Source: Novipirellula aureliae
GTDB lineage: Bacteria; Planctomycetota; Planctomycetia; Pirellulales; Pirellulaceae
Length of the DNA: 64,000 bases
Assembly (NCBI RefSeq): GCF_007860185.1
Contig: NZ_SJPY01000002.1
Coordinates: 252,374-316,373, forward strand
Direction of reading: 5' to 3'
Positions within the stretch are counted from its first letter, which is position 1. Every line of letters begins with the position of its first letter. Positions 4,342 to 33,808 of the stretch are shown piece by piece. The position numbers and the translations under genes were made by a program. The notes under the pieces were generated by a model. It was not told the DNA's origin. It did not search any database and saw only the letters and a program-made list of their open reading frames with translations.

Positions 4342-5208
4342 ATGACAAATCCTCCCCTGCCCTTCCCTTCGCGAAAGACGGACGCTCACAAAGGCGATGT
4401 GGGGAGGGTTTTGCTTGTCGGTGGTTCGCGTGGGATGGCTGGATCGATCTCGCTATCATCCATGGCGGCATTGCACACTGGATCGGGGCTCGTCAGTGCG
4501 GCGGTTCCCGATCGCTGTCTCGAAACGGTGGCCTCGTTTCATCCGTGTTTGATGACCATCCCGCTGGCGGATGATGCAGCAGGCCATTTTGCGAGCGCTG
4601 CGGTAACGGAGATTGCTCAGCAAGTGGACGCCTACGATGCAATCGGTTGTGGACCTGGGATGGGGACAAGTGATGCTGCGATCGAGCTGGTCGAGTTGCT
4701 ACTGCAAAAGAGCGATATCGCACGCGTCTTGGATGCGGATGCCTTGAACGCTTTGTCGAAAACCAATTGGGGCCATCGTCAATCTTCCAAATCGGGGCCA
4801 CTGATCTTGACTCCGCACCCTGGCGAATTACAACGGCTGTCAGGGGTTCGTTCTTCGGACCGCGAACAGCAAATCAAAGCGGCCCATCGATTGGCGGCTC
4901 TTCATGATGTCGTGGTTGTCGTCAAAGGGGGCCCGACGGTGGTCGTCGATGCCGAGCGAAAATGGACCAATACGACCGGTAATCCTGGCATGGCTACGGG
5001 CGGAAGCGGCGATGTCTTGACGGGAGTCGTCACATCGCTGCTCGGACAAGGCATGACGCCATGGGACGCCTCTCGACTCGGTGTTTGGCTGCATGGTGCC
5101 GCAGGCGATCGGGCTGCCGTGAAGCATGGTCAAGCAGGCATGACCGCACGGGAGCTGCTCGACGAGATCCCTGGCGTAATGGCAGCCTATGAAAATCGCT
5201 GCATTTGA
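4342..5208 (+). CDS. nnrD: ADP-dependent NAD(P)H-hydrate dehydratase (YjeF C-terminal domain)
   Basis: HKGDVGRVLLVGGSRGMAGSISLSSMAALHTGSGLV, LTPHPGE and GNPGMATGGSGDVLTGV motifs of the carbohydrate-kinase-like NnrD family. Confidence 0.8.
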   Translation: MTNPPLPFPSRKTDAHKGDVGRVLLVGGSRGMAGSISLSSMAALHTGSGLVSAAVPDRCLETVASFHPCLMTIPLADDAAGHFASAAVTEIAQQVDAYDAIGCGPGMGTSDAAIELVELLLQKSDIARVLDADALNALSKTNWGHRQSSKSGPLILTPHPGELQRLSGVRSSDREQQIKAAHRLAALHDVVVVVKGGPTVVVDAERKWTNTTGNPGMATGGSGDVLTGVVTSLLGQGMTPWDASRLGVWLHGAAGDRAAVKHGQAGMTARELLDEIPGVMAAYENRCI

Positions 5209-15411: not shown

Positions 15412-16995
15412 CTACAACGTCAATCCTAACTGAGAACGCGTTTTTTCGGGTACGACTCGGTCGAAAATGATGGCGGCACTGGAGTTGGTTTTATGCAATT
15501 CTTTGTAGGCGGCTTGCAGTTGAGCTTGAGTCTCCTGCAATAGCTCGGGGCGGTCCAACTGTTTGAGCCCCTCGCAGCGACTCACCAAGGCTAAAGTCCG
15601 ATAGAGCCGATCAATTTTTGGATCTGCGGACAATCGCCGCAGCACTTCCTCGGCCGCGCGCCATTGATTATCACTTTGCATTTGCCGCGCCATTTGCAAT
15701 TGGCTCTTTGCATAGTAACGGATATGGAGGGATTGGTTTTCAACGGGTGGGAAGTAGTCCGATACCGCGGACCACCCTGCTTCGTCGTTGCGAACGACAG
15801 CGATCAGGTATTGCTCTTCAACGCTTGTTGCCTGCGGAACTTGGTCAGGACGAAGTATTTGCGTGACACTTTTTGGTGGCCTCGACAGCATCGCGGCGCA
15901 AGTCCCGATGATTCCGATCATGACCGCCGCGACAGCCCCGGTCCATTTCAAAGCCTTGCGTCGGTTTCGCTGGCGGGACTCATCTACGATTCGTTGCAGC
16001 CGGACCGTCGCGGCAGCGGTTCCAATCGTTACAGCCGAAGTGCCACCGGAGATGGTTTGAGCATGAATCGCCGCGAGCACTTCGCTAGGTGATTGAAAAC
16101 GATCTTCGGGTCGTTTGCGAATCAATTTCGCCACGATCGCGATCAGCCATTCGGGAACATCGCTTGATCCACGCGCCAAATCCAAGGGAGCTGGAATCTC
16201 GTGTAGATGCATGACCGCCAAGGCCAGCGGATCTTCCGCTTCGAACGGTGGACGGCCTGCGATCAAATGGTACATCGAAATGCCGAGCGAATACAAATCG
16301 CTGCGAACATCGACAACATGCCCTTGAATCTGTTCGGGGCTCATGTACCGCGGCGTGCCGAGTGTCAACCCAACTTGCGTCAGGTCGCTTCGAGTGGCAT
16401 CGACGGAGTCGGTTGCCACTCGAGCCAATCCAAAGTCGGCAACTTTAATGATCCCGCGACTCGAACGCATGATGTTTTCGGGTTTGATATCCCGGTGCGT
16501 AATCCTTGCCTCGGCCGCAACTTCCAAAGCCGAACCGACTGCCATCAAAACCTCAATCGCTTCGTCCGCACTGACAGCCCCGGACCGAGTGATCACCTGC
16601 CGTAAATTGTCGCCATCGACCAATTCTTGAGCAATGTAGTGAAAGGAATCGACGTTTCCAACTTCGTAAATTTGAATAATATTGGGGTGGTTTAACTTTG
16701 CGGCCGCCTTGGCTTCTCGGCGAAATCGATTGACGTACGTTTCATCACTGGCAAAATCGCTTCGCAGTACTTTGATCGCGACTTCACGTCCTAGAATCAG
16801 ATCGCGTGCGGCATAGACATCCGCCATTCCGCCCCGGCCAAGTTTCCGTAAGATTTGATAGTTGCCTAACCGCGATCCCATCAACTGAGACGAGGACACG
16901 ATACCTTTTCGTTCCGAAACCGAATCCATTGCTTCGCCCATTGCTTCGGTACGCTCAGCCAACGGATCGCTTAGATCAGAGTCGTCGTGAATCAA
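15412..16995 (-). CDS. serine/threonine protein kinase with single TM helix and C-terminal extracytoplasmic domain
   Basis: Hanks kinase motifs LGRGGMADVYAARD, AIKVL, HRDIKPENIM, DFGLA, SPEQ. One hydrophobic helix (AVAAVMIGIIGTCAAML) followed by ~150 aa. Confidence 0.9.
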   Translation of the reverse strand: MIHDDSDLSDPLAERTEAMGEAMDSVSERKGIVSSSQLMGSRLGNYQILRKLGRGGMADVYAARDLILGREVAIKVLRSDFASDETYVNRFRREAKAAAKLNHPNIIQIYEVGNVDSFHYIAQELVDGDNLRQVITRSGAVSADEAIEVLMAVGSALEVAAEARITHRDIKPENIMRSSRGIIKVADFGLARVATDSVDATRSDLTQVGLTLGTPRYMSPEQIQGHVVDVRSDLYSLGISMYHLIAGRPPFEAEDPLALAVMHLHEIPAPLDLARGSSDVPEWLIAIVAKLIRKRPEDRFQSPSEVLAAIHAQTISGGTSAVTIGTAAATVRLQRIVDESRQRNRRKALKWTGAVAAVMIGIIGTCAAMLSRPPKSVTQILRPDQVPQATSVEEQYLIAVVRNDEAGWSAVSDYFPPVENQSLHIRYYAKSQLQMARQMQSDNQWRAAEEVLRRLSADPKIDRLYRTLALVSRCEGLKQLDRPELLQETQAQLQAAYKELHKTNSSAAIIFDRVVPEKTRSQLGLTL

Positions 16996-23034: not shown

Positions 23035-24939
23035 TCAGCGTCTGCGGCGTCCCTGCTTTGCTTTGCGTTTGATCATTGCTTTGCGTTTTCGGACCCATTC
23101 GGGTTGCACGCTGGCAAGATCAATTCCAGCAGCGAGGAGTGCCTTGTCCCAGTCGCCATAGAATTTTTCAGCCGTCAATATCAGAGCACTATCGCGAATA
23201 TCATCGTCGCCATGCGAAACCGCTCGATGGTTGAGTGGTATCCCCTCCTTGTGCCGACGTTGTAACTCCGCGATGACTTCGTCGCGGCTTTCATAGGTGC
23301 GATAAGTACGCTTCTTCATCGCTTCGTAGTCTTGCTGCTTGTGAACCACCGAATCGTACTCGATTCCAGCGGCTTCGATCGCCGCTTGCCAACTGCCAAA
23401 CAATTTACGAGCACTGTAGAGCAGTGGCTGATCGGTGGCATCGCCGTGGGTAAGGCCACGTACGTTAATCGGCTGGTCCTTCTTTTGCCGTTTGCGAATT
23501 TCGTCGACGACTTGCTTTTCCGTAACGTATTTCCGAATCGGTTCGAGGTTGAATTGATGGTAAGCTTTCGGATCTTGTCCCGACGCCCTGACGGCAGCCT
23601 GCCAGGTGCCAAAGAAACCGCTAGCCATACAATAAAGTTGCTTGTCGATCTCGTTTTGGCAAAGTTGCTCTCTTGCCAACGACCGACCGCCGCGGTTCCG
23701 TTTCTTCAGCTCAGCGGTCACTTTTGCAGTCGTTGAAAATGGGGTTTGACTGGCCTCGCGAATTTGTCGCGAATTGCCACCCGCCTTTTTGACGGCGTTT
23801 CGCCAACTGCCGAAGAGCTCGAACGCTTTCTTCCATAACCGCAAATCAGAGCGAGAACCGTAGTAGAGATCGAGAGGTGCTAGGCTATACTGATGATCCA
23901 ATCGATAGCGGATCGCTTCAAGCACATCCTGTTCGGTTTCATAGTTCACACGTCGGACACGCAACTTTTGCGGAACCCGAGCGGCATCGAGACAGGCGGT
24001 CCAATTACCAAAAAAACGAGCTGCTGCGTCGGTTAGCTGCGTGCCATTCGGCCACAAACTTACTGCCGTATGAGACAAATCCGCCTTTTCTCGGCTCTTT
24101 CGCCGCACCTCCTTTAACACCGATTCCTTCGTCAGATAGTGATGACCTCCAAAAACGGCTTTGCCAAAATCAACCTTCGCTGCTTCTAACGCGGCGGTCC
24201 AGTTGCCGTAACGGCGCATCGCCCAAACAAATTGCCGCGGTCGCCGATGCCACGTGTCATACTCTCCGAGTAACGTGACTTGCGTGCAATCGACTCCTCG
24301 ACTTTCACGGTCCTCAAGCCATTGCTTGAAATCGGCGAGCGTAAAGTCACTGTCTCGCGTGAACCCTCGATACTCCACAGGGTCAATATCGATTCGCCGC
24401 AGCACATCATCCCAGCTCATCGGATCGAGGAAGATTTTGAACACACCAACCAAGGAGCAATCGATCGTCGTCATCGTTTCATAGTCCATCCAAAAGCCCC
24501 GCATGGCATATTCGTTGATACGGTCCAATATGTATTCGGCGGTGTAAATGGGTTCCCAATGTGGAATGAACTCGGGATGAGGGGGGCGTTTTGAATTGCC
24601 TGTCAATTTTTCGCGTAAACGCTCGCTGACGAGTTCCGCATCGGGATACTCCTCGCGATAATCTTCGGTCGACATCTCGTGAGCCGACCGCAGATGTACC
24701 GTCAAATTCTGAAAACGACGGCCACAAACACGACACTCCGTCGTTTCACGCACATAAATGCGGATTTTATCATACGTCAAACCGGCATCCGCCAGGGCCG
24801 CTTTCCATCCCCAATACGGAGTTTCCGCATAGACAGCCGAAACCAATTCCGGATGGTCTCGTTTGACAGCAGAAAGGTTCAACGGTTCACATCGCCGATG
24901 TAGACGGCGAATGGTTTGGATTACTTGTTTACGGTTCAT
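23035..24939 (-). CDS. MucR/Ros-type C2H2 zinc-finger protein fused to ~7 homing-endonuclease-associated (HNH_repeat-like) repeats
   Basis: Near N-terminus: CRVCGRRFQNLTVHLRSAHEMSTEDYREEY (C-X2-C-X9-H-X4-H plus the E-YR-W/Y tail of the Ros/MucR domain). Then repeated ~60-aa modules each ending in an aromatic-G-x-W-x-x-A-h-x-x-A-G motif: YGNWTAALEAAK, FGNWTACLDAAR, FGSWRNAVKKAG, FGTWQAAVRASG, FGSWQAAIEAAG, YGDWDKALLAAG. Basic C-terminal tail. Confidence 0.6.
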   Translation of the reverse strand: MNRKQVIQTIRRLHRRCEPLNLSAVKRDHPELVSAVYAETPYWGWKAALADAGLTYDKIRIYVRETTECRVCGRRFQNLTVHLRSAHEMSTEDYREEYPDAELVSERLREKLTGNSKRPPHPEFIPHWEPIYTAEYILDRINEYAMRGFWMDYETMTTIDCSLVGVFKIFLDPMSWDDVLRRIDIDPVEYRGFTRDSDFTLADFKQWLEDRESRGVDCTQVTLLGEYDTWHRRPRQFVWAMRRYGNWTAALEAAKVDFGKAVFGGHHYLTKESVLKEVRRKSREKADLSHTAVSLWPNGTQLTDAAARFFGNWTACLDAARVPQKLRVRRVNYETEQDVLEAIRYRLDHQYSLAPLDLYYGSRSDLRLWKKAFELFGSWRNAVKKAGGNSRQIREASQTPFSTTAKVTAELKKRNRGGRSLAREQLCQNEIDKQLYCMASGFFGTWQAAVRASGQDPKAYHQFNLEPIRKYVTEKQVVDEIRKRQKKDQPINVRGLTHGDATDQPLLYSARKLFGSWQAAIEAAGIEYDSVVHKQQDYEAMKKRTYRTYESRDEVIAELQRRHKEGIPLNHRAVSHGDDDIRDSALILTAEKFYGDWDKALLAAGIDLASVQPEWVRKRKAMIKRKAKQGRRRR

Positions 24940-25054
24940 CAGAATGCTGGCAGAAAGTGATTGGCGATCGACAATTCATTTTACCAGAATCGACGCCTCA
25001 CTGCGGCCTCCGCTAGCCAAGTGTTCGAGCCTGCCTATTGCTTTGTCACCGCTT

Positions 25055-25120
25055 GATTTTTAGGCTTGGCAAAAGTCTCGCCCCAGAAAACGGCGGCTAG
25101 AAGCCACAGCCACGAAAGAG
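25055..25120. repeat. solo copy of the GGCTTGGCAAAAG...GCCCCAG...AGAAGCCACAGCCACGAAAGA hairpin element
   Basis: aggcttggcaaaagtctcgccccagaaaacggcggctagaagccacagccacgaaagagg. Related to the 1349-1552 array and to 44432-44490 and 63380-63420. Confidence 0.6.
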
Positions 25121-25691
25121 GCTTCATTTTCGATCCGCTCACGTTTCCAATCTTGGCCTGTACAGCACATTGCCATGCAAAAAAGGTGTATTGAAATCCT
25201 TTAGGGAGAGTCGGACATGCCGGAAACGAAGCATGACGCACGATTGAATGTTCGAATCAACAGCGTATGGAAGAAAACCATAGAAGACGCCGCTGCTCAA
25301 ACACTTCACATCGCTTAACTCGTTGGAATTCGAGCGGTAGAAGTTGACGCTATCGATAATGCGGCTCAACCATTCTATCTCATGTTTGGATTCGGAAAAT
25401 CGCTCAAATTGAACTGGTTGACGCCGCGTAGTGGGGAGCTTGGCAAAATCATATAAACCCATCTTTTCACCGCTTATCCTCGAACCTTATCCGGGCTAGC
25501 TCGGATGATTCATGGGCTTGCAAATTGTTTTGCTAACGTCTACGCCTTCAAGCGTTTACGTTCTTTGCTCGAAAAACAGTCTGCGTATCATCCGGGCTAG
25601 CTGGTTTTAGGTTTGACCGTCAATATCGCCGACGATTTTGTTTTTCCGAAAGCTGGGGAGAAGCGGCGAAAGCCTGGACTCCAACGAGTGG

Positions 25692-28600
25692 TTATCGATC
25701 CGGTGGGGGGGTGCGTGGTTCGAACGATGCCTCGGCTTCGTCGTACTGTTGGAGCATTTTTTCGAGTTGTTTTTTCAGACCTTCTAGGTCGCGGCTGTTG
25801 TCTAAGGATTCATTCAATAGCGGACGAAGCCATTCTTGCATTAAATGAAATTGGCCTTTGACTAATTCGGCAATCTCTCGAGGCACGCGGTACTGGACCA
25901 CCACCTTTTGCTCGGGCGGCGACAGTGCTTGCTGGGTGCTGATCTGTTCCAGATTCTTACTCGTTGCCGTTAACGTATCGGATAACTGTGATGCGGATGT
26001 CGATAGACTTTGCCGCAGCAGATCGAGCCGTGTGTCCATCCGCTCTTCCGCTCCTTCGCGGCCGATCGCGATGGCTTTGGAGATAACTTGCCGAATCGAT
26101 TCGAGTCCATCTCGCATCGATGCTAATTGTCGCATCAACTGGCCCGCCTGATCTTCACTATCCATTCCCTGCATCCGTACACTTTCGACATAAGCGTACT
26201 TGATCGCATCCCAACGCTCTTTCTCTTCCGCCGTCAAAATCCCCATAATCTCTTTGAACTTTAAAACGTTCGCTTCGTTGTCGGTCGTCAGTGTTTGTGC
26301 ATCCTGCTCGTACGTACTGACGATCAAGGTTTGCAACTCTCGCTCGTTCATCACGCCCGCCACCCGCTCGGCGATGCGGTTCATGTTTCGGTAACTACCC
26401 TGCAATTTGAACGCTGGCTCCGTTCGATAGGCATCCGCTTGCGCCGCACTTCGGATGTAGGCACGATTGACCTTCAACACGACGTCGCGAACCCGCAGCA
26501 GTTTACGGATAACTTCGAACATTTCGCGAACTTGATCGACCGATAGATTACTTTCAAGCTCAATCCCCTCGAGTGAATCTCGCCCTGCGGCGCGGATAAT
26601 CGCTCTCGCATCCTCGGGCGGTGCGGTCGCCAACGGCGAGAGCGTACGATTGCTGGTCAAGCAATTCTCTAGATAGCTCATTTCGAATGCGTCAGCCGAA
26701 TCGCCGATGATTTCACCGAGGTTATAGACATCGGCACGGTTGCTGAGCATATCGGGAACTTGGAATCGCTCACCACTTTCGGTATACGGATTACCCGCCA
26801 TGACGACGGCGACACGGCGTCCTCGCAAATCGTACGTCCGCGTTTTCCCATTGCGCACCCCTTCGATCTTGCGAGTCGCATCGCAGAGCGAAATAAACTT
26901 TTGCAGTAACTCGGGATGGGTGTGTTGGATGTCATCCAAGTACAGCATCACGTTGTCACCCATTTCCAAAGCCAAGTTCAAACGCTCGACCTCTTCGCGG
27001 GCCGCCGCGTTGGGTGCTTCAGCTGGATCGAGTGACGTGACGCCATGACCGATCGCAGGTCCGTTGATCTTCATGAACACCACGCCGAGACGGTTTGCAA
27101 TATACTCCATCAACGTGGTTTTCCCGTAACCAGGCGGTGAAATCAACAGTAGCAACCCCATGCGATCGGTCCGTTTGTCCGCGCCGGCGACTCCCATTTG
27201 TTTTGCCAAGTTATCGCCGATCAGCGGCAGATAGACTTCATCGAGCAGTTGGTTGCGTACGAAACTGGTTAGCACTCGCGGCTTGAACTCCTCTAACCGC
27301 ATCGAGTCGCGTGCGTCGTCCACCAACCGACTTTTCGTTTCATGAAGCTTTCGATAGCGTGGAACAACGTCCGAGCGATAGTGTCGGACTCGGTCAAGAA
27401 TTTCATGGTAGTTCAAACTCATCACGCCGCGAGTAATCCGCGAATGGCTACCCGCCATCGACTCCAGCTTCTTGGCAACCGCCGCCTTGACGACCTTCAT
27501 CGAAGTAGGTCCTGCGTTATAGATTAGCCATGCCAATTCATCGAGATAGGAGGCCGCAGGGTCAAGATCATCGCTGTCACTGTGCTTACTTAAAAACGCA
27601 TCGGCCCAATTGCGTGACAAGATGAATGCGGATGTAGGTGACGACTCGTTCGCTTTGATCGAAGCGGCAACCAGCTTTTCGCGAGTCTCTTCGGGAAGTG
27701 ATTCAGCGAACGAGTGATGTAGATCGGCTGCTCGACTGCTGACGACTCCACGCCGTGGCGATTCGACGAATTGTTCGAACAAGTAGTCTGCCATCAGCTC
27801 GGGGGTAACGTTTTGCGAAAAGATTGGTTTCCACAACAATCCATCCGCTTCGGCAAGCTCGCTCAAACGGTGACGAAACTCCACGGCAGGTTTTGCCTCC
27901 GGAAATGCTTTTGCCAATTTCGCGAATCCCGCGATCCAATCGGTCATCGCTTTGCGTTGTTTCGAGTCGAGTAACTTATTAAACCACAGCAGCGACGCGG
28001 TGCGAACCGACGGAGAATGTCGGAGCAGCCCAATCGATCGGCTAAATTCTAGAAGCGACTTCAAGATCTGCATCGCGTCGAGATCGTGAACCCCTTTGGA
28101 ATAACCTTCACGAAACCGGTCTTGCAATTGTGAATTCATCCAGGCGGGTGTGACCGCTTCCGAATCGGTAAACACAGACGACTCAAATAAATCGACGGCC
28201 AGAAATTCGCTCCGATAGACGTCTCCGTTTTCACTGATCAGCTCTTGGTCCCACAAGTCCTTTGCGTTCGAGAGGTCCTCGTTTTGCAGCGGTTCGAAAA
28301 ACTGGGTGCCAGTCAGATGCAAACAAATCTCACCATCTCGCAGCACCGTTGTTAAATCGAGTGTTTGAGTGTTTACTGCGAAGCGGTGCCGTCCGAGGCG
28401 GATCACATCGCCACCGTCTTCGTAGAGGTCTTGTCGATCCTTTAGCTGCCGCGACGCGTCTTCTCGAATCGTCTTGAGGCGGCTTTCCAGGTCACCGACA
28501 CGAACCGCATCCCCAAGTTCGCCTAGTTGGCGGATGATGTCGCGGACCTTTTCGACCATCAAATCGCCAGCGAAATAGGCAGCGATTTCTTCGCTCGACT

Positions 28601-30929
28601 CCATCGCTCGCGCACGTGAATCGATCCCCTTGATGATTCGACTGGCGGCCGATGCCAACGATTCAGCTCGGCGGTTTTGCTTTTCAATCAGCTGAACCTT
28701 ACAAGACTCGAAGGCCGCATAAACCTCTTCACGTCGCTCAGCCAATTGGACGACGAATTGATCAAACTCGGCAAACCGGCCTTCCAACTCTTCTAGCTGG
28801 ACCATGATTTTGGTCAGATACTCTTCGCATTTCGCTGGCGTATCCGAAACATCAAGATAACCAGCCGTGGTTTGCTGAAGCAACTTGAGCTGCGACGCGA
28901 ATTCTGCTTTTCCTTCGACGCTTACCAGTTCGCTGACTCGTGCCTTGAGCGAACTGCGTACTCGATTGAGTGATGCGAAAACGGTCCCGATCGCGTCAAT
29001 AATCTCCGTTCGTTTCGTGGCGTCATCAATGCGAAGATTACTGACCGTTTCGGTTAGTAGTTCCAACTGGGAAGCACTTTCGTCGATCGATTCGCCTAAT
29101 TTTTTCGCTTCGGTAACCGACTCAACCGCCGTGACGTTTTCGCCCGCTTCCTCCACACGTGTTTGGTAGAGATCGAGCGAACCAGGGGTCAGTAGAAAAT
29201 CGACACAACGTCGACTGATCCGCTCGGCTTTTTCAGCAGCATCCTTTTCCAGGCTATCGACAATCGCCTCGTCAACATAGCGAAGGTCTTTGAGAGCCAA
29301 GGCTGCGCCCCGTACATGCCGTAGTTTCGCTAGTGCGTCGACAAAATCATCGATCGAAGTGAATCGTCCCCGCTCGATCGTCTTCATCAAATCGGCGACG
29401 TCTTGCTGTACCTTCTTGGTTGCCGACTCCGTTTCGCGGCGAACGCGAACCACTTTTTCGAATTCGTCGACCGCTGCCGAAGCCGCATCGCGAATCTTAC
29501 CGATCGGCTCAGCAAGATGCTCGGTTTCAGCCTTGTCGATCCAAAAATAGTTATCCAGAATACTGGCCGAATTCTTGACCAAATCGACGTAAAGTCCATC
29601 GTAGTTGTCATCCTTGTCGATCAGGTTCAATAGCTCGCTGCATTCGGCCATGCCGCGAACGATTTCCTTATTGCCGATTTTGTAGAGCATCGAGTCGGTT
29701 TGATTGTCCGACACAAAATCAGCGGTCGTAAACGGTGTCTGCCAAACTTGAATCGCATGATGCTTTTGCGGTTCATTGTTCGTCTTGAAGCAAACCATCT
29801 CTCCTGCTTCGAAAAACGTTTGTCCGTTGCAAATCATCGGTGTTTCCACCGTTTGGCGAATCAGGTTATAGGCGAGTTGGACGTAGGTTCCCGATTCTGG
29901 GTTGTAGAACAGGTACAAGAAATCCTCGCCGTTGCTTGATGCGATCGTGCGTTGGTATTGCATATCGCTCAGCCCGTGATCAAACCGCTTGCATTGGCCT
30001 GTTTGTAGGTAATAGCCGCCTGGGAAGATCAGTCCTTGATCGCTCGGCAGCATCACGCAGGCGTGTGCAATTTCATCCAGTCGAATGGCGCTTTGGATCT
30101 TTCCGTTGTAGACCAAATAGCGGGTCGTCGTCTCTTGATAGGGACGGACCTTCATCAGAATCAAATTGCCAACGATCGCATAGTGGATCTCAGCATCGTC
30201 AAGTTTTTGGTCGGCGTGGTCGACGGGTTCGGCGTAAATCCCTTCGCCCGAGTCCGTATTGTTTTCGATCTTGACCGTCAAATCGCCACCAACCGTTTCG
30301 ATGAATACTCGGTCGTCGATCGAAATATGCGGATGTGTTCCGTAGTGATGTTGATCGCGAGTCGTCCGTTCCCAGCGAAACTCGTGCTGCGGCGGCACCT
30401 TCACTTCTTGTTCACTGCGGTTATCGATGTACTCGATCGAATCGGCTGTCATCCGCCATTTGAAACTCTTGATGTCTCGCGATGTTTTGCCGACGCGGAA
30501 TACCATGTGTAACATCGGGCCGGCACGAAAGAAGCGGGCGAACTTCGTGTCTTTATAAAACCGATACAGCTCGTGGAAATCGTTTCGAAAACGCTTGTCC
30601 CCGATCAGATCGAGCGGTTGTTCGTGAAATCGATTCTCACTGAATTGATAAACGGAAAAGACATCCTGCAGTTCAATCTCGTTTTTCAATCCAAATTGGA
30701 CGTTGTAGCCAAAGATAAATCGATCACCGATCGAAATCAGATCGCGAGGAATGCAATTGTGCTCCGTTGTCACCCGTTCGGTTGTGAGCAAACGTGTATC
30801 GATATTTCCAAAGACCGAGGCACGTTGCTCATTGAGCCTCTTCAATCGTCCGCGCAAATCGGTTGCCGCCTCGCGCAGACGATTGCGAAGGACCTCATAG
30901 GTGCCAGCCGCTAAAGGGGTATCCGGCAT
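25692..30929 (-). CDS. giant (1,745 aa) protein with a single MoxR/AAA_5-type AAA+ ATPase module and long coiled-coil regions
   Basis: Uninterrupted 5.2-kb ORF. Walker A LLLISPPGYGKTTLMEYIA, Walker B NVMLYLDDIQHTHPE, sensor-1-like RRVAVVMAGNPYTE (MoxR/dynein-type). The rest has no recognisable domains, with many predicted coiled coils in the central ~600 aa. Last gene of the NfeD-flotillin operon. Confidence 0.65.
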   Translation of the reverse strand: MPDTPLAAGTYEVLRNRLREAATDLRGRLKRLNEQRASVFGNIDTRLLTTERVTTEHNCIPRDLISIGDRFIFGYNVQFGLKNEIELQDVFSVYQFSENRFHEQPLDLIGDKRFRNDFHELYRFYKDTKFARFFRAGPMLHMVFRVGKTSRDIKSFKWRMTADSIEYIDNRSEQEVKVPPQHEFRWERTTRDQHHYGTHPHISIDDRVFIETVGGDLTVKIENNTDSGEGIYAEPVDHADQKLDDAEIHYAIVGNLILMKVRPYQETTTRYLVYNGKIQSAIRLDEIAHACVMLPSDQGLIFPGGYYLQTGQCKRFDHGLSDMQYQRTIASSNGEDFLYLFYNPESGTYVQLAYNLIRQTVETPMICNGQTFFEAGEMVCFKTNNEPQKHHAIQVWQTPFTTADFVSDNQTDSMLYKIGNKEIVRGMAECSELLNLIDKDDNYDGLYVDLVKNSASILDNYFWIDKAETEHLAEPIGKIRDAASAAVDEFEKVVRVRRETESATKKVQQDVADLMKTIERGRFTSIDDFVDALAKLRHVRGAALALKDLRYVDEAIVDSLEKDAAEKAERISRRCVDFLLTPGSLDLYQTRVEEAGENVTAVESVTEAKKLGESIDESASQLELLTETVSNLRIDDATKRTEIIDAIGTVFASLNRVRSSLKARVSELVSVEGKAEFASQLKLLQQTTAGYLDVSDTPAKCEEYLTKIMVQLEELEGRFAEFDQFVVQLAERREEVYAAFESCKVQLIEKQNRRAESLASAASRIIKGIDSRARAMESSEEIAAYFAGDLMVEKVRDIIRQLGELGDAVRVGDLESRLKTIREDASRQLKDRQDLYEDGGDVIRLGRHRFAVNTQTLDLTTVLRDGEICLHLTGTQFFEPLQNEDLSNAKDLWDQELISENGDVYRSEFLAVDLFESSVFTDSEAVTPAWMNSQLQDRFREGYSKGVHDLDAMQILKSLLEFSRSIGLLRHSPSVRTASLLWFNKLLDSKQRKAMTDWIAGFAKLAKAFPEAKPAVEFRHRLSELAEADGLLWKPIFSQNVTPELMADYLFEQFVESPRRGVVSSRAADLHHSFAESLPEETREKLVAASIKANESSPTSAFILSRNWADAFLSKHSDSDDLDPAASYLDELAWLIYNAGPTSMKVVKAAVAKKLESMAGSHSRITRGVMSLNYHEILDRVRHYRSDVVPRYRKLHETKSRLVDDARDSMRLEEFKPRVLTSFVRNQLLDEVYLPLIGDNLAKQMGVAGADKRTDRMGLLLLISPPGYGKTTLMEYIANRLGVVFMKINGPAIGHGVTSLDPAEAPNAAAREEVERLNLALEMGDNVMLYLDDIQHTHPELLQKFISLCDATRKIEGVRNGKTRTYDLRGRRVAVVMAGNPYTESGERFQVPDMLSNRADVYNLGEIIGDSADAFEMSYLENCLTSNRTLSPLATAPPEDARAIIRAAGRDSLEGIELESNLSVDQVREMFEVIRKLLRVRDVVLKVNRAYIRSAAQADAYRTEPAFKLQGSYRNMNRIAERVAGVMNERELQTLIVSTYEQDAQTLTTDNEANVLKFKEIMGILTAEEKERWDAIKYAYVESVRMQGMDSEDQAGQLMRQLASMRDGLESIRQVISKAIAIGREGAEERMDTRLDLLRQSLSTSASQLSDTLTATSKNLEQISTQQALSPPEQKVVVQYRVPREIAELVKGQFHLMQEWLRPLLNESLDNSRDLEGLKKQLEKMLQQYDEAEASFEPRTPPPDR

Positions 30930-30935
30930 GTTGGA

Positions 30936-33065
30936 CTACCCTTTCTTGCCATTTGACTTCGCCACTTTGGCCTCCAACATCGTACTGGCCTTCCGGTCGG
31001 CAATCGCAGCCGTTCCGGCCACGCCGAGCAAGCTAGTCAATTGGCTACGGACATCCTCGCTCTTAGCCATGCCCATCATCTTGGCAATCAGGGCGGCGAT
31101 CGAGAGGTCTTTGACGCCGTCTGTATCCAGGTTAAAACTGGAAACCATCTCGTTCAGCTGGCCACGGAAATAGTCGGCATTTCCATCAAAGAAGGTGTCC
31201 TTGATATCGGTTGCCACTCGGCTGTTGTAAACGAAGCGGTCGATTGCCTTTCCACCTTTGACCGCAGAAGTGATTTGGTCGAAGAATTCGCCATCGCCAC
31301 CAACGATATCGATTCTTGCCGCACGCAGTGCTTCACCAACGACACCCGCTTGGCTTTCGGCAATCCCGCGTTGAGCATCGATCGCCGCGATTTCGACGGC
31401 TTTTTCTTTGTCGAGTTTGAGTTTGAACTCTTCGTGTTCTTTGCCGACACCGTCGAGTTGTTTCATCGCTTCGGCCTTCTCGGTAATTCCGATTGCTTCG
31501 CTGCGATACTTCTCCAGGTCGACGTTCGCTTCGGCCAGCCCTTGTTTCTGGTTCGCCGCGGCGCGAGCTTCGATCCCCTTTGCTTCGGCCATCGCTTTCT
31601 TCTCTAAAATGCTTGCTTCGGCGGTCCCTTCCTTTTCCAAACTGACCGATTTGGCTTCTTGCACTTTCGCTTCGGCCAATCCAGCGGCAGCGGCCCTTGC
31701 AGCTTCCGCTTCGGCGAGCATTTTGGTAGCGGCCGTTTCTTTTTCCGCCGCGTCGCGTTTTGCTTCCGCTTCGATGCGGACTTTTTCGGCCAACAAGGTA
31801 CTCGCATCCTTTTCGGATTGAGCTTGTTTGGTGACGCGAATCAGTTCCTCTTCCGCTCGCATCTCTGCTGCGGTCACTTGTACCTTCTTCAGCCGGTCGG
31901 CTGCCGCGTGTTCCTGCGTGTCTTTGATCCGTTCTTGTTCTTCGACGACCGCCCGTTCGACGGCGACTCGTTCGCGGATCACTTCTTGGATGTTACGTTT
32001 TTCGACCTCGATCGCCTTTTCTTTTTCGACTTCGGCAACGCCGACGACTCGTAGTCGTTCGGTCATTTCTAAGTCGCGATCGCGGTTGACTCGTTCTAAT
32101 TCGACGGCGTCGGTCTTTTCCTTGTTTCGCTGTGCGACCAAGACTTGTCGAGCTTTGTTTTCTTCGGCAATCCCCAATTCCTCTTCGGTCGCAATCCGTG
32201 CTCGCTCAGCTTCGAGCCGTTGTTCTTCACGAACCTTTGCAGCGGACGCTTGTTCGCGTGACGTGATCTCGGCGATTTCTCGTGTTTGTTTCTCGACCGC
32301 TTCGACACGTTGGCGTTCGAGTTCGAGGATGGTTTCTTCCGCTTCGACGTCTTGCTTTTTAAGTATCTTCTCTTTATCGCGAGTGAATTGGTTTTCCTTG
32401 ACCTTTTCGCCAGCCGTCAATTCGGTAATCTTCTTGATACCTTCAGCATCGAGAATGTTGTTCGGGCTGAGTTTTTCGATCGGCGTTTGTTCCAAGTAGT
32501 CGATCGCCGCATCATCCAATTGGTAACCGTTCAAATCGGTACCGATAACCTTCAAAATCTCTTCTTTGAACTTGTCTCGCTGGTCGTAAAGATCGACGAA
32601 GTCAAATTGTTTTCCGACCGTCTTGAGTGCTTCACTGAATTTTGCATCAAACAATTCGCGAAGCGTGTCGATCTCGCTACATCGTTTCGCGCCGATCGAC
32701 TGGGCAACCTCTTTGATTTGTTCGTTCGAACTGTCGACGCGGATAAAGAAGGCGACCTTGATGTCCGCTCGGATGTTGTCTTTACAAATCAAGCCCTCAC
32801 TGCCTTGCCGGGCGATCTCGAAGCTCTTCAGCGTCAAGTCCATGAACTCGTAGCGGTGCAACAGCGGGATGATGAATGCCCCATTATTCGTCGAGACATT
32901 CAAGCCGCCAGCACCCGATTTGACGATCGCACGGTCGGGCCCGACGATGACAAAACATTTCTTAAAGGTAATCATCGCCGCAAAGATCGCGACAACACCA
33001 ATCACCACGACCACAATCCAAAATTGTGTCCAGCTTATCTCGGCAAGAAAAAACAGTGAGTTCAC
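30936..33065 (-). CDS. flotillin / SPFH (band-7) domain protein, YqiK/FloT-like
   Basis: N-terminal TM helix, SPFH core (FVIVGPDRAIVKSGAGG...DLTLKSFEI...KDNIRADIKVAFFIRV), long E/A/K/R-rich coiled-coil flotillin region (AEAEAARAAAAGLAEAKVQEAK), C-terminal GG-rich tail. 709 aa. Confidence 0.8.
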   Translation of the reverse strand: MNSLFFLAEISWTQFWIVVVVIGVVAIFAAMITFKKCFVIVGPDRAIVKSGAGGLNVSTNNGAFIIPLLHRYEFMDLTLKSFEIARQGSEGLICKDNIRADIKVAFFIRVDSSNEQIKEVAQSIGAKRCSEIDTLRELFDAKFSEALKTVGKQFDFVDLYDQRDKFKEEILKVIGTDLNGYQLDDAAIDYLEQTPIEKLSPNNILDAEGIKKITELTAGEKVKENQFTRDKEKILKKQDVEAEETILELERQRVEAVEKQTREIAEITSREQASAAKVREEQRLEAERARIATEEELGIAEENKARQVLVAQRNKEKTDAVELERVNRDRDLEMTERLRVVGVAEVEKEKAIEVEKRNIQEVIRERVAVERAVVEEQERIKDTQEHAAADRLKKVQVTAAEMRAEEELIRVTKQAQSEKDASTLLAEKVRIEAEAKRDAAEKETAATKMLAEAEAARAAAAGLAEAKVQEAKSVSLEKEGTAEASILEKKAMAEAKGIEARAAANQKQGLAEANVDLEKYRSEAIGITEKAEAMKQLDGVGKEHEEFKLKLDKEKAVEIAAIDAQRGIAESQAGVVGEALRAARIDIVGGDGEFFDQITSAVKGGKAIDRFVYNSRVATDIKDTFFDGNADYFRGQLNEMVSSFNLDTDGVKDLSIAALIAKMMGMAKSEDVRSQLTSLLGVAGTAAIADRKASTMLEAKVAKSNGKKG

Positions 33066-33808
33066 GATGATTGCTCCGAAGGTTGAAGAGAGACTTTGTA
33101 GATGCGTTTCCGTTTGTCAAATCCGATGATCCAAACCTCGGTCCCCTTGGGGATCGTCGGACCATCAGTACGAATGTTTAAAAGTAGTGGTGCGGCCTCG
33201 GCGCGAAACTTCGCTTGGCCGAATTCAGGGGTTGCTTCCGTGGTCGTCACCTCACACGTGGCACCCATTAAATGGTTCTCGTCGTATGCTGGACCTTTGG
33301 CAAATGTTCCGACAAGCGGCCCGGTGGCTAATTTCGTTCCCGCAACCGCAATCACGACGTTGCGAATGGAAAGCAGGACACTGGCCCCTACCGCCGGCTC
33401 ATAGCGATTTGAATCGAAGCCATGCCACAACAGGAAAGACACCGACCAAAATATCGTTGCAAAGATGCCGCCCCAAACGATAACCGGAACGCGGCCAAAG
33501 TTGGTCCAGCGAGCTGAAACCGCTCCGATACCGTGCCAAAAATCCCATTCGACCACCGAATCAAGATCCAAACCAGGATCCAAACCAGGATCGAGATCGA
33601 CCTCGGGGACATCAAACCCGAAATCCAACAAACCTATCATCGCCAATGCGGTGTAGGCGATCAACAAGCACACCAAGATCGATGCGGGCCAAATCGGACC
33701 GACGAACATGTTGTTGACCGGATCGGTAATCGAATCCGCGAAGTTCATGGATGCATTGACAAATGAATGGAAAACGAGCCCCGCCACGCAGAGGGGTGTA
33801 CTCAGCAT
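33062..33808 (-). CDS. NfeD/YqiJ-like membrane protein (flotillin partner)
   Basis: 248 aa, 4-5 TM helices, then a soluble C-terminal ~80 aa (GATCEVTTTEATPEFGQAKFRAEAAPLLLNIRTDGPTIPKGTEVWIIG) resembling the NfeD OB-fold. Overlaps the flotillin start by 4 bp, as in yqiJ-yqiK / yuaF-floT pairs. Confidence 0.5.
   Translation of the reverse strand: MLSTPLCVAGLVFHSFVNASMNFADSITDPVNNMFVGPIWPASILVCLLIAYTALAMIGLLDFGFDVPEVDLDPGLDPGLDLDSVVEWDFWHGIGAVSARWTNFGRVPVIVWGGIFATIFWSVSFLLWHGFDSNRYEPAVGASVLLSIRNVVIAVAGTKLATGPLVGTFAKGPAYDENHLMGATCEVTTTEATPEFGQAKFRAEAAPLLLNIRTDGPTIPKGTEVWIIGFDKRKRIYKVSLQPSEQSS

Follow-up and report, generated by a model that had tools for sequence, protein, structure and literature searches.

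A Ros/MucR-type zinc finger within an array of HNH_repeat units in Novipirellula aureliae: a candidate multivalent DNA-binding protein

We analyzed a 64,000-nucleotide stretch of the Novipirellula aureliae genome (contig NZ_SJPY01000002.1, positions 252,374 to 316,373 of the forward strand; here referred to as the window) and focused on a single gene whose product combines a Ros/MucR-type zinc finger with an array of HNH_repeat units. Its predicted sequence matches that of Q31b_14430, a hypothetical protein of N. aureliae, with 100% identity; the species is a marine member of the Pirellulaceae (Planctomycetota). From the N terminus to the C terminus it consists of one repeat, the zinc finger, a short HWEP motif, seven further repeats, and a basic tail (Table 1). 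The protein is basic, with an isoelectric point of 9.41, and the values for its full-length homologues range from 8.3 to 11.4. An AlphaFold model of the whole protein has a mean predicted local distance difference test (pLDDT) score of 83.6 and a predicted template modeling (pTM) score of 0.40.

Table 1. Features of the finger-repeat gene (window positions; residues are those of the encoded protein; HNH_repeat scores are for the unit scanned alone)
Feature	Position	Strand	Residues	Remarks
Whole gene	23035..24939	-		Open reading frame of 634 amino acids (aa) plus stop codon; ATG start
Repeat 1	24769..24939	-	1-57	Diverged HNH_repeat-like four-helix unit, N-terminal to the finger; ends with YWGWKAALADAGL; hhalign 97.9% to repeat 7
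Ros/MucR-type zinc-finger domain	24595..24759	-	61-115	Ligands C69, C72, H82, H87
HWEP motif	24550..24561	-	127-130	Between finger and repeat 2
Repeat 2	24376..24558	-	128-188	Most diverged; acidic (net charge -9); ends with PMSWDDVLRRIDI; hhalign 94.7% to repeat 6
Repeat 3	24163..24345	-	199-259	HNH_repeat, 17.4 bits
Repeat 4	23965..24147	-	265-325	HNH_repeat, 13.9 bits
Repeat 5	23767..23949	-	331-391	HNH_repeat, 17.6 bits; pLDDT of its own model, 92.7
Repeat 6	23566..23748	-	398-458	HNH_repeat, 12.9 bits
Repeat 7	23353..23535	-	469-529	HNH_repeat, 24.4 bits
Repeat 8	23113..23295	-	549-609	HNH_repeat, 22.0 bits; full-length profile match
Basic C-terminal tail	23038..23112	-	610-634	Net charge +11; predicted helix

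An initial annotation, made from the DNA sequence alone, had described a C-X2-C-X9-H-X4-H finger with an E-(D/E)-YR-E-x-(W/Y) tail at the N-terminal end of the protein. The motif reads as claimed (C69-RV-C72-GRRFQNLTV-H82-LRSA-H87-EMST-E92-D-Y-R-E-E-Y98), and all four zinc ligands are invariant across 12 full-length orthologues. The finger does lie near the N terminus, but repeat 1 precedes it. Against the Pfam family ROS_MUCR (cut-off, 25.4 bits), the whole protein scored 22.0 bits and the isolated finger segment 25.8 bits, making the assignment borderline for this protein taken singly, while three relatives of the same architecture scored 56.3, 27.6, and 26.8 bits, all above the threshold. 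A profile built from the orthologues matched the structure of Ros87 (PDB 2jsp) over query residues 65 to 98 with an E value of 5.7e-5, and a Foldseek comparison of the model with 2jsp gave a probability of 0.91 and a template modeling score of 0.46. The modeled finger comprises strands at residues 67 to 68 and 75 to 76, helices at 79 to 86 and 91 to 97 (the latter containing EDYREEY), and an extra helix at 106 to 112. The published elements of Ros are β2 at 76 to 78, β3 at 85 to 86, α1 at 89 to 97, and α2 at 101 to 108 (PMC7283297). The two sets are related by a constant 10-residue offset, equal to that between C69 and Cys79 of Ros, and strand β1 is the sole element of the Ros core left unassigned in the AlphaFold model. 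Taken together, the profile match, the scores of the relatives, the offset of the elements, and the Foldseek result indicate that a structured Ros/MucR DNA-binding core is present, and at the family level we consider this profile-based assignment firm.

Ros/MucR proteins (Pfam PF05443) bind AT-rich DNA through their C-terminal zinc-finger region and oligomerize through their N-terminal domain (PMC9779718, PMC7283297). The N. aureliae protein shares with them the C-x2-C-x9-H-x4-H zinc site, a second helix of the EEYRExW type (EEYREKW in Ros), and a predicted βββαα core, and DNA binding through the finger is probably common to both. The ROS_MUCR match, however, covers only profile positions 65 to 96 of 123, with positions 1 to 64 unmatched. 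As judged from this alignment, the MucR N-terminal oligomerization domain (Ros residues 1 to 55) is absent and repeat 1 occupies its place, so that the protein is not a MucR family member in its architecture. It also differs from Ros in length (634 versus 142 aa), in occurrence (Planctomycetota and Verrucomicrobiota rather than alpha-proteobacteria), and in carrying helical repeats on both sides of the finger. Any multivalency would reside in a single chain instead of arising through oligomers.

Pfam HNH_repeat (PF18780; cut-off, 26 bits) matched the protein in four stretches with a total of 61.8 bits (E = 7.9e-17), in agreement with the repeat identity proposed initially. An [FY]G.W..A motif closes units at residues 244, 310, 376, 443, 514, and 594. 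About seven repeats, all located after the finger, had been counted originally; anchoring the units on the conserved G-x-W instead delimits eight, including one in front of the finger. Scanned singly, repeats 1 and 2 gave no Pfam match, being too diverged. In profile-profile alignments (hhalign) of the orthologue sequences, repeats 7 and 8 matched at 99.7% and repeats 1 and 8 at 97.0%, next to the matches of repeat 1 to repeat 7 and of repeat 2 to repeat 6 listed in Table 1, while the finger segment, included as a negative control, reached at most 1.2% against any repeat. By these values, units 1 and 2 share ancestry with the remaining repeats. The repeats are ancient, and no DNA-level repetition of note was found within the gene.

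Each repeat is predicted to form four helices, about 13, 6, 10, and 7 residues long, with a short linker helix after them. Among the orthologues, each repeat position keeps conserved polar and charged residues of its own. The HWEP motif, which joins the finger to repeat 2, is a signature of this architecture; in the wider family its W128 and E129 never vary, and H127 and P130 hardly do. The tail likewise retains its W615-V616-x-x-R619 start and its lysine/arginine-rich character in the orthologues. A model of a single unit (repeat 5) had no close solved relative and no convincing match among solved DNA-binding folds, and among viral models Foldseek returned one uncharacterized phage protein only. 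The modeled repeat fold hints at a helix-turn-helix-like topology, which falls short of proving DNA binding. Apart from 2jsp, the whole model had no significant Foldseek match in the PDB. In Pfam, PF18780 is described as a companion of the HNH homing endonucleases found in haloarchaea and phages. The N. aureliae protein resembles these proteins in its repeat of about 55 to 65 aa with a P-L...FGSW..A(L/I)..AG core. It differs from them in lacking an HNH or other nuclease domain, in its long array of eight individually diverged units, in its fusion to a zinc finger, and in its chromosomal, non-mobile setting, with conservation across related genera. By score, then, it qualifies as a bona fide HNH_repeat protein, minus the nuclease association that gave the repeat its name.

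We found about 28 near-full-length orthologues with 47 to 58% identity, from Novipirellula, Neorhodopirellula, Rhodopirellula, Roseimaritima, Pirellula, and metagenomes; NCBI labels one of them a "MucR family transcriptional regulator." Comparison of the full-length orthologue sequences shows invariant zinc ligands and repeat cores and a gene conserved under purifying selection. More distant homologues (25 to 35% identity) retain the N-terminal module of repeat 1, finger, HWEP, and repeat 2, with the finger ligands, in 41 of 43 proteins. A word-indexed search with an alignment of this module retrieved five fragments only and was superseded by an exhaustive profile search against 1.84 billion cluster representatives (metagenomes, clustered at 50% identity). 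The exhaustive search gave 4,248 matches at E ≤ 1e-3, 1,464 at E ≤ 1e-10, and 324 at E ≤ 1e-30. The weaker matches will include generic HNH_repeat proteins; the family comprises at least 324 clusters. Among the 150 best matches listed, nearly all carry the whole module near the N terminus, and the strict finger motif with its ligands is kept in 139 of the 142 cluster representatives that were new. These proteins have 1 to 14 repeat units and lengths of 222 to 1,057 aa, many of them probably being fragments. Named family members belong to the Pirellulaceae, Verrucomicrobiales, Akkermansiaceae, and Chthoniobacterales. The fusion is thus found in Pirellulaceae and Verrucomicrobiota, and the family looks centered on Planctomycetota and Verrucomicrobiota, a spread that is a lower bound because most matches are metagenome proteins.

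Several variants depart from the common layout. One homologue (P0049, 801 aa) has two complete repeat-finger-HWEP-repeat modules; another (P0143, 647 aa) starts directly with the finger at the very N terminus, without repeat 1, and continues with about 10 canonical repeats; and a third (P0029, 919 aa) is a pure array of repeats. The N. aureliae protein is 58% identical to its counterpart in strain SH139 and 56% identical to that of Neorhodopirellula but only 52% identical to that of its congener N. caenicola, a pattern that may reflect transfer, unequal rates of evolution, or the existence of paralogous subfamilies.

The gene lies on the same strand as, and 752 bp downstream of, a gene for a 1,745-aa DUF3686/DUF7902/AAA protein, and a phosphofructokinase gene follows 260 bp further downstream. 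The large AAA gene is the third of a three-gene cluster (window 25692-33808, minus strand) and has a weak PADLOC match to IetA (18 bits). The first gene of the cluster (248 aa) has a weak, below-threshold match to the NfeD C-terminal domain (16.9 bits), and the second (709 aa) has no Pfam match at E ≤ 1. The location downstream of the AAA+ and putative flotillin genes that had been pointed out initially is real as a position, but the arrangement is not conserved: the window's neighbors recur beside no orthologue or distant relative at about 19 distinct loci. When all open reading frames of loci L001 to L022 were compared with those of the window by blastp, the matches were confined to the gene itself and to Ser/Thr kinase paralogues of a generic kind, and the window's neighbors were not found in the gene tables of the distant loci L024 to L026. 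Across loci the neighbors are mostly housekeeping genes. In the absence of a conserved neighbor at these loci, we attach no functional meaning to the position beside the AAA+ genes and conclude that the gene acts alone, with no conserved partner gene alongside.

Considering these features, we favor the interpretation that this stand-alone chromosomal gene encodes a multi-module nucleic-acid-binding protein that acts as a monomeric, multivalent DNA-binding regulator or nucleoid protein. We regard this as somewhat more probable than not, and the simpler proposition that the protein as a whole binds DNA is likelier still. A repeat-based DNA-recognition protein had already been suggested by the initial annotation, and this is still the best reading, although an inferred one. 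The finger would anchor the protein on DNA as in Ros/MucR, and the repeats and tail would supply further DNA contacts within the same polypeptide. Multivalency would thereby be achieved within a single chain, where MucR obtains it by oligomerizing (PMC9779718). The output could be transcriptional regulation of an extended or composite site, or the activity of a DNA-coating or DNA-bridging nucleoid protein. The residues conserved specifically at each repeat position suggest non-equivalent, position-specific contacts rather than those of a uniform polymer. Several observations weigh against this interpretation. DNA binding by HNH_repeat modules is itself putative; the repeats end in a short, alanine/glycine-rich helix that does not resemble a typical base-reading helix; two repeats are acidic, repeat 2 clearly and repeat 8 slightly; the mutual arrangement of the modules is not predicted with confidence (pTM, 0.40); and the whole-protein ROS_MUCR score falls slightly short of its threshold (22.0 versus 25.4 bits).

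Some of the same observations bear on the main rival, in which only the finger touches nucleic acid and the repeat array recruits or sequesters other factors, serving as a scaffold for protein-protein contacts or as a surface for RNA binding. The lack of a convincing match between the repeat and solved DNA-binding folds would fit this arrangement, as would the acidic repeat 2 and the whole-model Foldseek results, which consisted of generic helical-repeat scaffolds and RNA binders (PPR, IFIT, and armadillo proteins), none of them significant. The repeat-specific conserved surface residues are equally compatible with defined protein partners. Nevertheless, no conserved partner gene accompanies the gene, the family is uniformly basic, and the repeat recurs with domains that act on nucleic acids: the zinc finger in this protein and, in the Pfam description, HNH. 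The variation from 1 to 14 repeats among relatives also fits additive binding to a polymer better than participation in a fixed protein complex. We consider the scaffold or RNA-binding alternative unlikely.

The initial annotation also offered the possibility of a domesticated or remnant mobile-element protein. On this view, the protein would stem from a homing endonuclease or mobile element by domestication or decay, with the repeats representing the DNA-targeting array of a former HNH endonuclease minus its nuclease. The Pfam definition of HNH_repeat does rest on an association with HNH endonucleases and phage proteins, and the protein has weak matches to two PHROG families of unknown function. 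In addition, one orthologue lineage has a tyrosine integrase about 740 bp upstream, one distant member lies inside a conjugative element with TrwB and ArdC genes, and the C-terminal sequence of one finger-less homologue (P0043) may, by eye, resemble a PD-(D/E)xK nuclease motif. However, scans of the protein against Pfam, NCBIfam, PHROGs, and PADLOC revealed no nuclease and no defense domain, consistent with the absence of a nuclease domain noted at the outset. A degraded nuclease was also sought beside the gene, and six-frame fragments of both flanks gave no Pfam match at E ≤ 1. Pfam scans of 20 relatives found nothing beyond ROS_MUCR and HNH_repeat, and a search of 2.9 million viral contigs for the signature of the family, HWEPx[WY][ST]x[EL]Y, found no match. 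The gene is intact and full length, is conserved at 47 to 58% identity over genera of the Pirellulaceae with one locus found per genome, has predominantly housekeeping neighbors, and contains anciently diverged repeats without DNA-level similarity. A remnant of a mobile element is thus very unlikely. A role in antiphage defense was rejected because PADLOC returned no match. It is less likely again, to the point of being hardly credible, that the gene is the last one of the upstream operon of NfeD-like, putative flotillin, and DUF3686-AAA+ genes, regulating or working with that operon. Its orientation and its place directly downstream of the AAA gene would allow this, and the Pfam description of DUF3686 reads "ATPase involved in DNA repair," but the 752-bp gap between the two genes and the lack of such neighbors at the other loci argue otherwise.

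With regard to the integrase (L002, 4737-6080, and L003, 4304-5647), two metagenome contigs encode an identical orthologue (P0016) and have the integrase upstream in both. The genes past the integrase differ between the two contigs, so that a variable island beside the gene apparently begins there. The finger-less homologue P0043 (536 aa) consists of repeats followed by a C-terminal region containing "VPDFVD...IDTK," the sequence that was compared by eye with the PD-(D/E)xK motif.

A bolder form of the DNA-binding interpretation, which we consider doubtful, is that the family is the counterpart in Planctomycetota and Verrucomicrobiota of MucR and the H-NS-type nucleoid silencers. It would follow a different principle from the oligomerization of a small DNA-binding domain: with a MucR finger and up to 14 helical DNA-contacting modules in one chain, a monomer would suffice to coat, bridge, or compact DNA. 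Alternatively, the repeats, diverged yet conserved position by position, could read an extended site module by module. The resemblance to H-NS-like silencers (H-NS, MvaT, Lsr2, Rok, and MucR; PMC9779718, PMC9410896) would be one of function, in that a basic protein combines a small DNA-binding domain with a way of contacting DNA many times; homology is confined to the finger, and the oligomerization domain is missing here.

Ros/MucR fingers have been treated as an alpha-proteobacterial family whose function depends on the N-terminal oligomerization domain (PMC9779718, PMC11662661). The present family has this finger core in Planctomycetota and Verrucomicrobiota, where the domain is lacking and the finger is set in an array of a repeat so far known only from its association with homing nucleases. 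In the literature searched, we found no description of the fusion, of the family, or of HNH_repeat function, and none of MucR in Planctomycetota or Verrucomicrobia. Both domains are already tagged in databases and one orthologue is already labeled as MucR family, so what is new is the arrangement of known domains. The family offers a tractable route to the function of the HNH_repeat module, and it could be used to test whether single-chain multivalent DNA binding replaces oligomerization in a MucR-type protein. To our knowledge, the nucleoid-associated proteins and global regulators of Planctomycetota are poorly characterized, which makes this family a candidate worth testing. The hypothesis is conceptually neat, but so far nothing about it is mechanistically surprising.

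We also noted several minor features of the locus and its counterparts. The 752-bp spacer upstream of the gene (24940-25691) is unusually long. It contains a 107-aa open reading frame (25139-25462, minus strand) with no Pfam match, as well as two minus-strand copies of the 12-mer GCTAGCCCGGAT, which start at about 25600 and 25498. The spacers upstream of orthologues are also long (about 475 to 760 bp in L002, L004, and L006), and these long spacers could be regulatory regions or leaders. A search of the long flanks for non-coding RNA gave just two Rfam matches, both sub-threshold, at chance level, and located elsewhere, and promoter and terminator sites were no more numerous than in shuffled sequence. 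At the otherwise unrelated loci L004, L006/L007/L010, L014, and L017, a gene for a Ser/Thr protein kinase is found within a few kilobases of the orthologue, and the window has a kinase gene (15412-16995) about 6 kb from the finger-repeat gene. Planctomycete genomes are rich in Ser/Thr kinases, and this proximity may therefore well be due to chance. At one locus, that of Neorhodopirellula pilleata (L001), a small gene for an AHH (HNH-like toxin) protein and a gene for a DUF559/MTES_1575 (Vsr-like endonuclease) protein lie near the orthologue (78-578 and 4484-4915), on the opposite strand and at no other locus. Finally, in a Verrucomicrobiales locus (L024, 4531-5958), a family member begins 43 bp after a gene for a sigma-54-activating response regulator on the same strand, and the two may be co-transcribed.

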